DNA of 4,589 bases from a virus (IMGVR_UViG_2724679543_000008); one strand, 5' to 3'. Shown: positions 1 to 4,589, counted from the first letter of the stretch. The notes: generated from the sequence alone by a model not told the origin. Translations and numbers: made by a program.

Positions 1-58
1 TGTTGTTCTGAGGTGAGCATATCACCTCTGTTCAGGTGGCCAAATTCAGTGTGCCACT

Positions 59-205
59 TCAGGACGGTAAGCCTGACAGGTAGCCCGGAATGAGGGTCTT
101 GATAGCGAGCGACAACGGATAGGACTGACCGTCCAGACTCACAGTGTTTTCATAAAGGTTGATGTCGGTGACTGACAGCTTCCAGTTGTTGTTGTTGAAC
201 ATCAT
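59..205 (-). CDS. hypothetical small protein, 48 aa (MMFNNNNWKLSVTDINLYENTVSLDGQSYPLSLAIKTLIPGYLSGLPS)
   Basis: Hand-translated minus-strand ORF, ATG at 205-203 (second in-frame ATG at 202-200), TGA stop at 61-59. Strong SD GAGGAG 8 nt upstream of the ATG (rc of ctcctc at 214-219). Same strand as the Rha operon. Absent from the ORF track, which appears to list only ORFs of about 60 aa or more. No recognisable domain. Confidence 0.35.
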   Translation of the reverse strand: MMFNNNNWKLSVTDINLYENTVSLDGQSYPLSLAIKTLIPGYLSGLPS

Positions 206-324: not shown

Positions 325-501
325 CTAACGGTTAAGCGGCAGTTTCATAGCGACCAGTTGGGCTATTAGCTCGTCTCGGGATTGGTGCTGGCGGGTCTCA
401 TCTTCCGGGTCTAGACCAAGCTCTCTGAGGAGGACTTCAGTCCGGTAGCCACGGTAACGGAGAGTCATGCGCCCCTCAGGTGTGCGCGGGTCAATCATCA
501 T
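325..501 (-). CDS. hypothetical small protein, 58 aa (MMIDPRTPEGRMTLRYRGYRTEVLLRELGLDPEDETRQHQSRDELIAQLVAMKLPLNR)
   Basis: Hand-translated minus-strand ORF, ATG at 501-499, TAG stop at 327-325. The ATG lies 1 nt after the TAA stop of the upstream Rha-like gene (503-505), with a GGAGG SD inside the Rha 3' end, suggesting translational coupling. Absent from the ORF track (below length cut-off). No recognisable domain. Confidence 0.4.
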   Translation of the reverse strand: MMIDPRTPEGRMTLRYRGYRTEVLLRELGLDPEDETRQHQSRDELIAQLVAMKLPLNR

Positions 502-502
502 C

Positions 503-1249
503 TTAGATTCCCTCCACCTTACCGGATTGTGCCAGCTTCAGGAGGTGCTCTTGCTTCTGCTGGTCGGTGCCAGTGAATGCAATAAGGATGCCTCGCATCT
601 TGTCAACCATCTCAGGCTTACCGAAGACCTCCAGCCCCTTAGCGTTGAACCGGAAGTTATACCCACCTGCTGAGAACTTCTGGTCTGACGGCTTAATGAT
701 ACGAAAGCAGTCGGAATACTTCGGATTTACAGACCACTCGTTACTGATTGGGTTCTTACGAAAGAGGCCACGATGCTGGAGAAGTGCGGTCATTAGCTTC
801 TGAGCGGGCAGACCATAGGTTTTGCAGTAGTCGCCCCAAGTCACGCCTCGGCGGTTAGCGGACTGAATGGCTGCTCGCTTCTTCTGGTCTTCCAGTTGAA
901 GGACTCGACGCTCTAACGTCTGAATATGGTCGTAACACTTGGCGCGGAGGTGAACGGAATAGCCAGCGACCAGAATGAAAGTATGCTTACGGTCGAGACG
1001 ATACATTGTTCGGCTCTCACCTTTCGCGTCCTTGTATACTTCCTCGCCAACGAGCCCAAATTTGGACCCGTTAAGCTCGCTGCTCAAAGTTGAGCAGTGC
1101 TCAGTTTTGGCCCCGTTAAGCTCTTCGACCATATTACGAATATCTCGTAAAACGTGTTTATGTTCTTTTCCTGTCAGCTCAGCAATTTCAACTGAGGTCA
1201 TGGACACAAGCTGGTCGAGGTTAATGATGCTGATTTCTTGTTGGGACAT
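503..1249 (-). CDS. Rha-family phage regulatory protein / antirepressor-like protein, 248 aa
   Basis: ORF-track ORF with ATG start. Canonical SD AAGGAG (rc of ctcctt at 1259-1264) 9 nt upstream. N-terminal segment SMTSVEIAELTGKEHKHVLRDIRNM resembles the conserved core of the Rha domain (recalled motif of the form ssrEIAELtGKrHdnVlRDI). C-terminal half is compatible with an antirepressor-type (KilAC/ANT-like) domain, but that is a weaker, memory-based call. Confidence 0.8.
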   Translation of the reverse strand: MSQQEISIINLDQLVSMTSVEIAELTGKEHKHVLRDIRNMVEELNGAKTEHCSTLSSELNGSKFGLVGEEVYKDAKGESRTMYRLDRKHTFILVAGYSVHLRAKCYDHIQTLERRVLQLEDQKKRAAIQSANRRGVTWGDYCKTYGLPAQKLMTALLQHRGLFRKNPISNEWSVNPKYSDCFRIIKPSDQKFSAGGYNFRFNAKGLEVFGKPEMVDKMRGILIAFTGTDQQKQEHLLKLAQSGKVEGI

Positions 1250-1563
1250 TTACGTGTACTCCTTTTGTTTGCACCCTGAAGTCGCACCCCACTGACCTAC
1301 TCAAGCCCCCACGTAAAGGGAGACCAGCAGGCAACAGGACGCAAACAGAATGACTTGAGGTAATTGGGGTTAGTGGTCTGCGATGACCATAGAGATGAAG
1401 GTTCGACAGCATGTCCGAGCGTGTGTGGTGATAGACTTAAGTCACGAGACCAAAGAACACACAGGCTGACCAGAGGCTGTCTTGCCTTAGGCTGGTGGCT
1501 AGCTTGCTAGCGTGGACCACGGTTTCTCGCTTGCCGTCTCTCAGGAGGTCAGAGGCGAGATAT

Positions 1564-1586
1564 GGTCCCTATAGTGATAGTTTAGT
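1564..1586 (-). promoter_or_regulatory. T7-family phage RNAP promoter-like site P1 (-17..+6), predicted +1 G at 1569, transcribing leftward
   Basis: Minus-strand sequence ACTAAACTAT CACTATA G GGACC. Positions -8..+3 (TCACTATAGGG) are identical to the T7 class III consensus TAATACGACTCACTATAGGGAGA; the -17..-9 region diverges. Lies ~320 nt upstream of the Rha-like gene on the same strand. Confidence 0.6.
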
Positions 1587-2124
1587 CAAACAGGAATGAA
1601 CTTCGGAGAACTTGACGCGAAAGTGTTCAGTACTTCCAGTAAGACCCGAAGCATGGAGACCACATCATAGCGACCATAATTTTACTTCGGGTTGGCGGGA
1701 GTGGAGGCTGGACTTAAAGTTCTTCTTATTGGAATTGTGATAACACAATCCATAACAAGATAAACTCATGGTCTCCTCCAGCCTGCTGGTCAAGACTCAA
1801 AGCTCCAACCTCAGACACCACTGATCTAACCTCTTTGAGTTTCCGCCTGTCCACAAATGGATGGCAGACCTCAGTAATGGTGTCTTGGTTCTTCAGTTAT
1901 CCGCGCAGCGATTATCACAGAGCCAACTTAAAGTCGGATGTGGTCTACTGCTCCCCGCCTGTCAAAAGGGAAGATAGCTTACGTTAAAAGGAATGGTCTC
2001 AGGCCAAGGTGATTTAACACTAGGCGTCTGCGGATGGTTTCCAATCGGTCCGCTACCGGAAGCCTGAGACTTAATGAATGTGTGTATGGGTCGTGACTGC
2101 TATTAAGGTGGGGACTTAGGGTCT

Positions 2125-2147
2125 CTCCCCTATAGTGATAGTTAAGG
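2125..2147 (-). promoter_or_regulatory. T7-family phage RNAP promoter-like site P2 (-17..+6), predicted +1 G at 2130
   Basis: Minus-strand sequence CCTTAACTAT CACTATA G GGGAG. Shares a 16-nt identical block with P1 (plus-strand ccctatagtgatagtt). Core -8..+3 identical to T7 consensus. Confidence 0.6.
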
Positions 2148-2152
2148 GTCCA

Positions 2153-2175
2153 TTCCTCTATAGTGAGGTGTATTA
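2153..2175 (-). promoter_or_regulatory. T7-family phage RNAP promoter-like site P3 (-17..+6), predicted +1 G at 2158
   Basis: Minus-strand sequence TAATACACCT CACTATA G AGGAA. Differs from the T7 consensus TAATACGACT CACTATA G GGAGA at -11 (A for G) and -10 (C for A), plus +2 (A for G) and +5/+6 in the initially transcribed region; 19/23 overall. Directly tandem with P2 (start sites 28 bp apart). Confidence 0.65.
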
Positions 2176-2367
2176 TCGCTCAAGCACTGGGCCACATTGA
2201 CACACCACTGACGCCAAAAGCTAACATCAGACTTCTGCGCTCGGCTGCTGGAAGGTAACCTTCAGAAGGCCTGTAACCATTATCAGAAATCTCATGGTCA
2301 ATATGCTTTGCCATTTCAATGTATTTTGCAAGGCGCTCAACAGTTAATCCCCGAAATTGTTCAGAGT

Positions 2368-2787
2368 TTACCGCCAGGACACTTTTGCAATATCGTCTTG
2401 GTTATCCAAATGATCCGCCGAGAAATTAAAGCTCGAAGTATACGAATCGCCGTGAGCAATAGCGTCTCTTACCTCAAGACACTCTTTGATAATTTGGTAA
2501 GGTTTTGTCCCCATATAATTGTTTATACCGCACAATTTTAACGTATTCTTGTGCATTGTCTTTCTGCACTCTTTCTGCGTCTTATCGTAGCCGGGGTCAA
2601 CCTGTTTTCTATAGAAGATGAACATTGCCTCAATAGCAAAAGCAGTAAATATTATACCTGTGCGGCAATGATGCTCACGTTGCCAATCTTCCGAAGCCAT
2701 TCCAGCCAGCCCCAAACAAGTTTCAGCAGTATTCATACATTCATATGAAGGCTTATTTTCTTTGCTAACTAAAAATTCTTTGACCAT
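2368..2787 (-). CDS. hypothetical protein, 139 aa (AT-rich accessory/cargo gene; possible HEPN-like Rx4H motif)
   Basis: ORF-track ORF with ATG start at 2787 and SD-like GAGGA 4 nt upstream. Starts 31 nt downstream of the integrase stop on the same strand. Markedly lower GC than flanking genes (hand count: 23/60 GC in 2521-2580 versus 36/60 in 3421-3480). Contains EVRDAIAHGDSY near the C-terminus, which fits the R-x4-H signature used by HEPN-type RNases, but a single motif is weak evidence. Confidence 0.6.
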   Translation of the reverse strand: MVKEFLVSKENKPSYECMNTAETCLGLAGMASEDWQREHHCRTGIIFTAFAIEAMFIFYRKQVDPGYDKTQKECRKTMHKNTLKLCGINNYMGTKPYQIIKECLEVRDAIAHGDSYTSSFNFSADHLDNQDDIAKVSWR

Positions 2788-2818: not shown

Positions 2819-4429
2819 TTACTTTCCGTCTATTTTTTTTACTGACAATGACTCCGCTAATTTTTCTTTCAGCGTTTCCACCTCGACCTCTTTCGCGTAA
2901 CGGTCGTAAGTTATAGACCCTGAGCTATGACCCATAATCGCCTGAGCATACGCTAACTCGACCCCATGTTGTTTTAACTGGGTCGCAACTGTATGTCTAA
3001 ACGAGTGAAAAGCTAAGCCGCTACGGTCAGCGAGGACTTTGGGCAGCAACGTTCGGTTAAACCACTTGCTAACCTGCTCACCGTAGCCGTTCTTCATTAG
3101 CTTGAGGCCATTGAACACCATAGCATTATCACCCTCAGTCTTTCTACGGTCTTCCACGAGTGACATAAAGTCAGCCAATACAAAACCATAAGCACCATCT
3201 ACCAACGGGACACAGCGGTCACTGTGGGCGTTCTTGATACTCTTACCCGGCAGGCTGCTATCGTCTTCGTTGATATGGATAAAAACGGTCCCAGCCTCAG
3301 TGGTCCTGACATCTTTAACCTGAAGTTGGGCCACCTCGTTAAGTCTCGCACCTGTAATCGCAGCCAGAGCGGTGACGTAATAATGGTATGGCTTACCTGA
3401 GGTCTTCTGCGAGTACGCTTTAGCTGCGACCAGTAGTTGCCCTACCTGCTCAGGACTGAACGCATCACGAGCGTCGGAGGCTTTACGCTGAGGGACTTTC
3501 AGCTCAAGACCTTCGGTCAGGTTCTTAGCTATCAAGTCGTTGCGTACCGCCCACTTAAACACAGCAGCCATCTTGATAAGATATTTATTGTTAATGGTAA
3601 CGACGTCCAGACAGTCAGTCTTAGACTCCCGGTTCAGCAAGTCAGACAGCGGCATAGACTTAAAGCGTTGCTTGCGGTTCTTCGGTAGCTGCTGGAGGAC
3701 TTCACGAACTCTGAGCATATCTGCACGGGTCGCCTTGCCGACATCCTGAATATCCAGATAGTCGAATATCTCGATTAGCGTAGAGTGTGACGCTCGGTTT
3801 TCGCTTAGGGTCGCTGGCTTCCAGTTCTGGGCGTTCTCCTGCTCGTACTGCTCAATGAGAGACGCGAGGGTCAGTGCTTTAGGTTCAGGGACTTCAGGTT
3901 CCGCCAATACAGATAGGGAGACGGACGGTCTTAGACTGCCAGTCTCAGGCTCAAGGTAAGACAATAGGCCAGAGCTATCGCCATTGAGTCTATCCTGACA
4001 GGCCTTAAGCACACCGATAACGTCATTAATATAGCGATGCTGGTCTACAGTCAGACGCTCGGTCGCTACAGCTTCCCGAAGGTTGGACTTAATGTCATCG
4101 TACTGGTCAACGTAAAGCTGGTAGGACTCCGGGTCGTTCAGGTCATCACGGCTGACACTAAGTTCCCACTCGACAATGGTCTTCAGGTGCTCCCGTAGCT
4201 CCTCATAAGAGGCGTTAGGGTTGTCTGCATGGATTGCTTTAAGTGCTGACTTGATGTGCCGTGAGTGAGCCATAGCGGTACGTCTATCCTTGGTCCGTAA
4301 AGATACTGACGCTAGTTTATAACGGTTGTGAGAAGGAAGCGAAGCGGTCAGGCGACTAGTGGTCTTCATCCTAAGACGGATGTAAAAGACACCATTACGC
4401 TGATAAAGGTAGGTTCTTGACTTGAGCAT
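2819..4429 (-). CDS. int: tyrosine site-specific recombinase (phage-type integrase), 536 aa
   Basis: ORF-track ORF with ATG start and AAGG SD 9 nt upstream. C-terminal catalytic domain carries the recalled tyrosine-recombinase signatures: TGARLNE (box I Arg), HSFRHT (H-x-x-R box II), GHSSGSITYDRY (catalytic Tyr). N-terminus (YLYQRNGVFYIRLR) resembles integrase arm-binding N-termini. Sits immediately downstream of a tRNA 3' end on the same strand, the classic island/prophage arrangement. Confidence 0.9.
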   Translation of the reverse strand: MLKSRTYLYQRNGVFYIRLRMKTTSRLTASLPSHNRYKLASVSLRTKDRRTAMAHSRHIKSALKAIHADNPNASYEELREHLKTIVEWELSVSRDDLNDPESYQLYVDQYDDIKSNLREAVATERLTVDQHRYINDVIGVLKACQDRLNGDSSGLLSYLEPETGSLRPSVSLSVLAEPEVPEPKALTLASLIEQYEQENAQNWKPATLSENRASHSTLIEIFDYLDIQDVGKATRADMLRVREVLQQLPKNRKQRFKSMPLSDLLNRESKTDCLDVVTINNKYLIKMAAVFKWAVRNDLIAKNLTEGLELKVPQRKASDARDAFSPEQVGQLLVAAKAYSQKTSGKPYHYYVTALAAITGARLNEVAQLQVKDVRTTEAGTVFIHINEDDSSLPGKSIKNAHSDRCVPLVDGAYGFVLADFMSLVEDRRKTEGDNAMVFNGLKLMKNGYGEQVSKWFNRTLLPKVLADRSGLAFHSFRHTVATQLKQHGVELAYAQAIMGHSSGSITYDRYAKEVEVETLKEKLAESLSVKKIDGK

Positions 4430-4563: not shown

Positions 4564-4589
4564 TGGAGCGGGCGAAGGGAATCGAACCC
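4564..4589 (-). tRNA. glyU: tRNA gene, 3' portion only (T-arm, acceptor 3' strand, discriminator, CCA); consistent with tRNA-Gly (CCC, glyU-type); 5' part lies beyond the window edge
   Basis: Minus strand reads GGGTTCGATTCCCTTCGCCCGCTCCA: T-loop TTCGATT, T-stem 3' strand CCCTT, 7-nt acceptor strand CGCCCGC, discriminator T, encoded CCA ending at 4564. This matches my recollection of the 3' end of enterobacterial tRNA-Gly(CCC). The anticodon is outside the window, so the isotype is recalled, not demonstrated. Confidence 0.65.

Follow-up and report, generated by a model that had tools for sequence, protein, structure and literature searches.

The locus raises the question of why sites resembling promoters of T7-family phage RNA polymerases (RNAPs) lie beside a tyrosine integrase gene and a tRNA attachment site. 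The stretch analyzed here (the window) comprises 4,589 nucleotides (nt) of the viral sequence IMGVR_UViG_2724679543_000008. A first-pass annotation offered two explanations. The sites might mark one end of a temperate T7-like prophage whose polymerase gene lies elsewhere in the element, or they might belong to an island that lacks a polymerase and depends for its transcription on one provided by an infecting T7-like phage. T7-group phages are textbook examples of strictly lytic phages and are used heavily in biotechnology and phage therapy. If the second explanation is true, a dormant element of E. coli and Shigella would be read by the polymerase of its invader and would thereby sense infection very directly, and the satellite concept would extend to lytic podophages.

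Predicted promoter sites of two phage types

The 9-mer TCACTATAG is present at positions 1569-1577, 2130-2138, and 2158-2166, on the minus strand only, and our recount thus agreed with the three copies and the +1 positions (1569, 2130, and 2158) reported previously. Dinucleotide shuffles of the window contained a mean of 0.04 copies, and none of 200 shuffles had three, in line with the earlier statement that the copies are not random. The complete sites, all on the minus strand, are P1 (1586-1564, +1 at 1569; ACTAAACTATCACTATAGGGACC), P2 (2147-2125, +1 at 2130; CCTTAACTATCACTATAGGGGAG), and P3 (2175-2153, +1 at 2158; TAATACACCTCACTATAGAGGAA). They are co-oriented within 612 bases (1564-2175) and are aimed away from the integrase gene and toward a Rha-family gene (503-1249, minus strand), as had been proposed.

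P3 is identical to the T7 consensus TAATACGACTCACTATAGGGAGA at 18 of the 23 positions, one fewer than the 19 counted in the first-pass annotation. With a weight matrix derived from 17 annotated T7 promoters, P3 scored 27.2 bits, which is at the low end of the range of T7's own promoters (26.0 to 39.2 bits); the runner-up site in the window scored 0.7 bits. With a matrix derived from the 11 annotated promoters of phage CR44b (genus Kayfunavirus, Studiervirinae), P1 scored 34.5 bits and P2 scored 29.5 bits, compared to 29.6 to 35.4 bits for CR44b's own promoters and 4.7 bits for the runner-up in the window. The copy of P2 in the E. coli 31B19CPO012 genome (L001) reached 31.0 bits. Because the scores match those of the phages' own promoters, with P2 just under the CR44b lower bound, P1 and P2 are, as predicted by the matrices, Kayfunavirus (K1F/CR44b-type) promoters, and P3 is a predicted weak-to-moderate T7-type (Teseptimavirus-like) site. 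The earlier assignment to the T7 family therefore holds at the level of the family, but P1 and P2 are not T7-type, and only P3 is T7-like.

In line with this assignment, P1 and P2 have exact 22-nt matches to CR44b promoters. The 16-mer AACTATCACTATAGGG, which P1 and P2 have in common, occurs in three to five co-oriented copies in many T7-like viral contigs of 39 to 40 kb, where it is embedded in [AC]CT[AT]AACTATCACTATAGGGA. One of these contigs is 94 to 97% identical to Citrobacter phage CR44b, Escherichia phage ST31, and their relatives. The likely helpers for P1 and P2 can thus be named as K1F/CR44b/ST31-type phages.

P3 departs from T7 at -11 (A for G) and -10 (C for A), two positions that matter for T7 RNAP specificity. 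Its best database matches were promoters of T7 and of phage Ebrios, and no phage with its exact consensus was found by BLAST against phages or by a 16-mer search of IMG/VR. When variants of P3 were compared to phages by BLAST, promoters of T7/Ebrios and of Vibrio phages ICP3/N4 were nearest, and none was exact. An exact search of IMG/VR with the P3 16-mers of the window and of the E. coli types returned scattered single matches, none of them island related. In a separate contig scan for the tandem arrangement CACTATAGG...CACTATAGGG, the matches listed belonged to a dispersed palindromic repeat of one Kiritimatiellaeota metagenome-assembled genome (MAG).

Island structure and relatives

Intact islands have the order integrase, defense-gene slot, promoter array, structured leader, Rha, small open reading frames (ORFs), and a 329-amino-acid (aa) protein. 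Compared to them, the window is, as judged from its sequence, a degraded copy of an approximately 6.4-kb island at tRNA-Gly (glyU). The integrase (536 aa; 2819-4429, minus strand; Pfam PF00589, Phage_integrase, E = 1.6e-18; PHROG 1, integrase, E = 4e-45) is encoded upstream of P3. The last 26 nt of the window (4564-4589, minus strand) are the 3' end of tRNA-Gly, which is annotated as such in L001, and the tRNA 3' end contains the 17-bp att core TGGAGCGGGCGAAGGGA (4564-4580, minus strand). The proposed association with an integrase and a tRNA was therefore correct. ARAGORN reported no tRNA in the window because the tRNA gene runs past the window edge, and an Rfam scan of the window gave just a subthreshold tmRNA-like match at the tRNA end.

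At the opposite end, 61 nt (1-61, strand not assigned) are 100% identical to the IS911 ends in Shigella phages Sf6 and SfII, and homology to intact islands begins at base 62-63. IS911 has cut the gene of a 163-aa coiled-coil protein, of which the first 48 codons remain (62-205, minus strand; ORF 59-205), and has deleted the operon beyond this codon, including a capsid-type gene. In addition, the cargo gene in the slot (2180-2787, minus strand) is frameshifted. It has lost one T in the T-run at 2383-2386 relative to L038, a 99.9% identical copy in which the 202-aa frame is intact, and is now split into ORFs of 139 aa and 44 aa. Because of the IS911 truncation and the frameshift in the cargo gene, the window's own copy is probably nonfunctional.

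We compared islands from E. coli genomes, IMG/VR, and metagenomes. The same element, at approximately 95% identity and adjoining glyU, was found in about 28 complete E. coli genomes. In L001, TGGAGCGGGCGAAGGGA is present at 18139 and 24513, 6.4 kb apart, and delimits a complete island with the integrase, a DUF4145 gene, promoters, leader, Rha, small ORFs, and proteins of 164 aa and 330 aa. The repeat similarly bounds islands of 6.4 kb in L080 (4079/10475), 4.2 kb in L082 (5530/9733), and 9.1 kb in L079 (218/9302; including IS66), and it also delimits several metagenome copies. It was found at both ends in L001, L079, L080, L082, L205, L207, L209, L212, L213, and L217, while the window has only the tRNA-side copy. 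The same island resides at different sites (glyU and ynfE/F) and in other genera.

The first-pass annotation had suggested that the host genome and related phages be scanned for the promoter model. In the islands compared here, the motifs are conserved across dozens of relatives, with their specificities swapped. The array is always co-oriented and downstream of the integrase, usually as two clusters approximately 450 to 560 nt apart. P1 is identical in L001 and L079, and in L037, L207, and L213 it is replaced by the variant CACCTTAGG, also one of the natural sites of CR44b (position 9838). Nearly every relative that covers the P2 position has a Kayfunavirus-type site there. The P3 position is the most variable in the array and holds other T7-group promoter types in relatives; homology between the window and the E. 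coli islands breaks at base 2168, within P3.

The array of L080 contains one exact T7 consensus TAATACGACTCACTATAGGGAGA, one site of a fourth type, and two exact K11-type sites (AATTAGGGCACACTATAGGGAGA, the K11 consensus). An exact T7 consensus is also present in L082. In many metagenome copies, the Kayfunavirus-type site is paired with ATA[AT]ACCCTCACTATAGG, a promoter type present in a contig that is identical to Cronobacter phage GW1, a relative of Citrobacter phages SH4/SH5. Since T7, K11-type, and GW1/SH4-type sites are swapped among relatives, the arrays track several phage lineages. The comparison provides evidence that the promoters are maintained by selection.

Leader RNA, operon genes, and cargo slot

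Approximately 880 nt, with P1 inside, lie between the Rha gene and P2 and contain no conserved ORF. Between P1 and the first codon of Rha, positions 1250-1568 (minus strand) form the predicted 5' untranslated region (5' UTR), in which no ORF has a conserved frame. Upstream of it, folding and conservation point to a structured noncoding transcript of 561 nt between P2 and P1 (1570-2130, minus strand). Its minimum free energy (MFE) was -180.1 kcal/mol, compared to -154.4 ± 6.9 kcal/mol for shuffled sequences (z = -3.72). In four variants, the 561-nt leader consists of long invariant blocks and one variable patch, which in L079 forms a different local hairpin. The minus strand of the leader has four copies of TAAGTC, and the Rha-proximal part of approximately 107 nt is common to many more island variants. 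No sigma-70-like site was found on the operon strand of the leader, and the leader showed no similarity to the genome ends of T7 or Kayfunavirus. As candidate roles, the leader could be an origin or a region for priming, could signal packaging, or could act in processing or timing. A 34-aa ORF in the leader with a strong ribosome-binding site was rejected as a gene, because neither its C terminus nor its stop codon is conserved and, in the part that is conserved, the nucleotide sequence itself does not vary.

The first gene downstream of the promoters encodes a Rha-family, DNA-binding, anti-repressor-like protein (503-1249, minus strand; Pfam Phage_pRha, E = 1.5e-18; PHROG 10324, "anti-repressor Ant," E = 2.6e-62). 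In other islands, a KilA-N protein or unrelated ORFs are found in its place. It is followed by a 58-aa ORF (325-501, minus strand) that is conserved in relatives and had no family match in Pfam, PHROG, or PADLOC. The gene of the 163-aa protein, which is full length in L038 (5861-6352), lies directly upstream of the capsid-type gene in intact islands. Its product is rich in charged heptad-like sequence and had no Pfam, PHROG, or PADLOC match; from its position and coiled-coil composition, our guess is that it could be a scaffold.

The 329-aa protein encoded by the last gene also had no match in Pfam, PHROG, or PADLOC, and a profile search of PDB sequences was likewise negative. A word-indexed search returned close homologues only (E. 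coli, Shigella flexneri, Citrobacter koseri, and Rouxiella), and a full HMMER search of cluster representatives detected about 30 remote full-length relatives. Two of the latter have C-terminal Ig-like domains (Big_2 and He_PIG), which PHROGs ties to virion proteins. The last gene of L080 (375 aa) is a homologue with 28% identity (hhalign probability, 100%), and a profile search found the capsid-type gene in every complete island with the leader type of the window. The 4.2-kb island of L082, which has kept its exact T7 promoter, lacks it. A structure model from 14 close homologues had a pLDDT of 35, and the fold assignment rests on a second model, in which this conserved protein models as an HK97-fold capsid protein. 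The modeled fold suggests a minimal capsid-encoding satellite. The capsid-type gene is followed by a hairpin and a T-run. A site with TCACTAAAG at the end of this gene was rejected as a promoter because it lies in coding sequence and does not resemble one in its upstream half.

The slot between the integrase gene and the promoters differs in content between islands. In L001, it holds PD-T7-4, a zinc-ribbon plus DUF4145 (HEPN) protein (PADLOC model, E = 1.3e-102), and E. coli relatives have RAZR/PD-T7-4 at this location. PD-T7-4 was identified in a functional selection, and it "often overlap[s] an integrase gene" (PMC9519451). Now called RAZR, it is an abortive-infection zinc-finger HEPN RNase that becomes active upon assembling around phage ring proteins, including the portal protein gp8 of T7 and T3 (PMC13017515). 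The frameshifted low-GC gene in the slot of the window is unrelated to RAZR and had no PADLOC match; its intact 202-aa version is located at 9622-10230 in L038. A weak RiboL-PSP-HEPN match (E = 0.021, under the Pfam cutoff) and an RDAIAH (Rx4H) motif in its protein make it a candidate HEPN-like defense gene. Judging by these contents, the slot seems to behave like a defense hotspot.

Proposed mechanism and alternatives

We consider it likely that the element is a small integrative island at tRNA-Gly that has no RNAP of its own, uses promoters for T7-group polymerases to have its operon read upon infection, and is a phage satellite or parasite. In an uninfected cell, the operon from Rha to the capsid-type gene would be silent. 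When a matching T7-like phage infects, the phage polymerase would transcribe the operon, and the island would then exploit that phage as a satellite or parasite. Conceivably, the island supplies its own capsid-type shell protein and the helper gives replication, portal, terminase, and tail. The promoters may also double as T7-style origins, by analogy to T7 promoters on plasmids, and the slot would carry anti-phage cargo expressed by the host. We propose, tentatively and with clearly less confidence, a more specific scheme, in which no smaller capsid-encoding satellites than the 6.4-kb islands would be known and strictly lytic T7-group podophages would have their first such satellites. Their arrays would be rematched by recombination to Kayfunavirus, T7, K11, and GW1/SH4 phages, the promoters and the structured leader would together serve as origin and packaging signal, the HK97-type capsid protein and the scaffold would build a small shell for island DNA, and portal-sensing RAZR would be the cargo.

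A temperate T7-like (Autographiviridae-type) prophage that ends in the window and has its polymerase and structural genes beyond it would agree with an integrase beside a tRNA, phage-type promoters, and the T7-like style of the sequence; moreover, IS911 cuts the window, and its own far end is unseen. Against this, the att-bounded relatives of 4.2 to 6.4 kb end at the second att and contain no RNAP gene, for which, at 2.7 kb, they are too small. The search out to the second att that the first-pass annotation had proposed also revealed no DNA polymerase (DNAP), portal, tail, or terminase gene in these relatives. Promoter 22-mers were the sole sequence that the island DNA had in common with CR44b and T7, tblastx of the island against both phages detected no similarity, and near and distant DNA searches of 50,697 phage records found no island relative, just IS911 and a 54-nt patch. 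Using the CR44b polymerase gene as a blastn query, we detected a T7-type RNAP gene in 28 of 5,426 E. coli genomes; all 10 of the matches listed (28 in total) were DE3-type laboratory strains, and no natural E. coli genome was among the matches listed. The island leader, for comparison, is present in 377 E. coli genomes. Because there is no room for the polymerase gene and this gene is rare in E. coli, the prophage explanation is refuted for the island family, and for the window we regard it as very improbable. Comparison of the relatives supports the other explanation, that of a polymerase-less island read by the RNAP of an infecting T7-like phage, which fits all comparative evidence. It is similarly hard to believe that the motifs are nonfunctional, as chance matches or relics. 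The copy in the window has indeed decayed through an IS insertion and a frameshift, but the number of copies far exceeds the shuffle expectation, the full 23-mers score like genuine phage promoters, and the sites are conserved with an orderly exchange of specificities.

A phage-triggered defense island that is not itself transmitted is a stronger competitor, which we nevertheless judge to be rather unlikely. Here, the promoters would be an infection sensor and the operon would sabotage the infection; for example, the Rha-type binder, the structured RNA, and a capsid-fold decoy could poison assembly or soak up the polymerase, and host-expressed RAZR-type cargo could be a second layer. On the strength of its modeled fold, the capsid-type protein could be such an assembly poison and not a shell for the island's own DNA. 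The promoter evidence applies equally to this explanation and to a satellite, and the island slot contains a proven anti-T7 abortive-infection gene. Furthermore, no recognizable replication initiator, excisionase, terminase, portal, or pac site was found in the island, and the four to five ORFs behind the promoters had no Pfam or PHROGs match to portal, prohead protease, connector, small terminase, or replication families. Circular or excised forms were absent from 23 leader-bearing metagenome contigs, several of them 6.2 to 6.6 kb long, all of which represent integrated islands; those contigs of 6.2 to 8.3 kb that contain the island all have chromosomal flanks. The island of L082, with its exact T7 promoter and no capsid-type gene, also fits a defense role. 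However, the integrase, the precise att repeats, the varied sites, and the occurrence in other genera point to repeated horizontal transfer, for which a purely defensive cassette would not account, and the capsid-type gene is conserved beside its scaffold-like partner across variants that are only 28% identical. Defense is also compatible with a satellite lifestyle, since known satellites defend their hosts as well.

As a satellite, the island would resemble capsid-forming elements such as EcCI2 (cf-PICIs) in having its own HK97-fold capsid protein, in its case according to a structure model. The cf-PICIs are larger, encode a complete set of head and packaging proteins (portal, protease, terminase small subunit, and connectors) together with a replication module, and parasitize temperate siphophages. 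In contrast, the island comprises 6.4 kb, with one capsid-type and one scaffold-like gene and neither rep nor terS. Induction of cf-PICIs is by derepression, whereas that of the island would be by the helper RNAP acting on its promoters. P4-like and PICI satellites also have a variable anti-phage slot beside the integrase; they are described as carriers of defense hotspots by Rousset et al. 2022, as far as cited in PMC9519451. In the island family, cargo has been exchanged between homologous islands, with RAZR in relatives and a different HEPN-like gene in the window. Unlike P4 and PICIs, the island has no P4-type primase, Sid/Psu, cos site, or PICI-type regulators, and its helpers would be strictly lytic podophages.

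For promoters acting as origins, there is a reported precedent. Chung and Hinkle are said to have observed in 1990 that DNA with a T7 promoter was replicated by the phage replisome during infection, and their plasmids reportedly needed, in addition, the T7 concatemer junction for packaging. The island, in contrast, is without similarity to Kayfunavirus or T7 genome ends.

The first-pass annotation called the combination of such promoters with an integrase unusual and thereby overlooked islands with tandem T7-like promoters and an upstream tyrosine integrase that were published in 2006. In that computational study, by Chen and Schneider (NAR 34:1133-1147), 12 islands of 4 to 13 kb from nine enteropathogens are said to have been described. 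They reportedly have two to three tandem T7-like promoters within 150 to 620 bases, no RNAP gene, an upstream tyrosine integrase, and terminal direct repeats of 17 to 24 bp. Mosaic recombination among the islands was reportedly noted, and satellites of T7-like helpers are said to have been proposed. The family of the window shares the promoters, the lack of an RNAP gene, the integrase, the repeats, and the mosaicism, all found here independently. Since the class had been published by Chen and Schneider in 2006, the first observation at this locus was a rediscovery, and the literature searched contained no experimental follow-up of the class since then. The window itself is truncated and frameshifted in comparison to those islands and carries a modest message, since it is a degenerate representative of an island type already described. 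For its intact relatives, the capsid fold, the presence of the now mechanistically understood RAZR/PD-T7-4 in the slot, and the named helpers make the island class directly testable. The proteins of the 2006 islands were reportedly unlike known phage structural proteins, while the last gene of the present islands models as an HK97-fold capsid protein. The element class is already known, and the link to RAZR cargo, the HK97 fold, and the breadth of promoter types matched to named phage lineages appear to go beyond the 2006 paper.

Inactivated genes and IS insertions in the window and in L038

The cargo gene of the window is a pseudogene (positions 2180-2787, minus strand) with a run of four T residues at 2383-2386, whereas L038, a copy of this island with 99.9% identity, has five. 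The intact cargo product of 202 aa contains the motif RDAIAH (Rx4H) and shows a match to RiboL-PSP-HEPN that is below threshold. The 202-aa protein may be the product of an uncharacterized HEPN defense gene, located in the slot that RAZR occupies in E. coli.

The 163-aa gene, which in intact islands lies directly upstream of the capsid-type gene, was also found to be disrupted. It is interrupted after codon 48 by an IS911 end that adjoins the island (window positions 1-61) and is 100% identical to the copies annotated in the Shigella phages Sf6 and SfII. Furthermore, the Rha gene of L038 carries a different IS inside. Together, the IS911 in the window and the other IS in L038 point to an IS-rich, Shigella-like host.

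Sequence elements in the leader

The 881-nt leader preceding Rha contains four TAAGTC hexamers and one TAAGTT (window positions 1439-2118), all on the minus strand, which is the transcribed one. Four TAAGTC copies were reached in none of 5,000 mononucleotide shuffles. These hexamers differ from the CCTACAGT repeats present at the genome ends of the Kayfunavirus phage CR44b. The leader also harbors a 34-aa ORF (MSLSCYGLCYHNSNKKNFKSS...; approximately 1666-1770, minus strand) with a strong GGAGGAG ribosome-binding site; across relatives, the nucleotide sequence of its first approximately 22 codons does not vary. This ORF is probably not a gene, since its C terminus and stop codon are not conserved in the relatives.

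Variant islands and their promoters

E. coli 14EC001 harbors a mini-island of 4.2 kb (L082, 5530-9749) at the same glyU att site. Besides an integrase and two small ORFs, it carries a single promoter that matches the T7 consensus exactly; the capsid-type gene and a cargo gene are both absent. Either L082 is a reduced island, or it belongs to a different functional type. In the island of E. coli 51008369SK1 (L080), four tandem promoters are arranged within 556 nt (7517-8072) and represent three specificities: two are of the K11 type, one is an exact T7 consensus, and one is AATTAGGTAGCACTATAGGGAGA.

A related island in E. coli UMNK88 (L081) is located in the ynfE/ynfF region and not at a tRNA gene. 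It comprises an integrase, a 155-aa ORF, two promoters, a KilA-N protein replacing Rha, and the 163-aa and 329-aa genes; no flanking repeat of at least 12 nt was detected in the stretches compared. In O157-like genomes, a second integrase in divergent orientation (L079, 9409-10629) lies just past the island att site, which suggests tandem islands at glyU.

Distal end of the intact island and an unrelated repeat

In the intact island L001, the region 3' of the capsid-type gene (18395-18560, minus strand; outside the window) contains a hairpin, GGTCAGAC / GTCTGGCC, followed by TTTATTTT. Between these elements and attR, there is a 27-aa ORF (MDLHKVYLVVFLLKLGLVVWLWAIRR) encoding a very hydrophobic peptide and provided with an AGGAGG ribosome-binding site.

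Separately, the genome scan revealed a palindromic repeat containing GACCACTATAGGGTC, which is unrelated to T7 promoters. It forms a striking repeat family within the Kiritimatiellaeota MAG CALXOF01 (L084-L163), with more than 100 dispersed copies among the matches listed.
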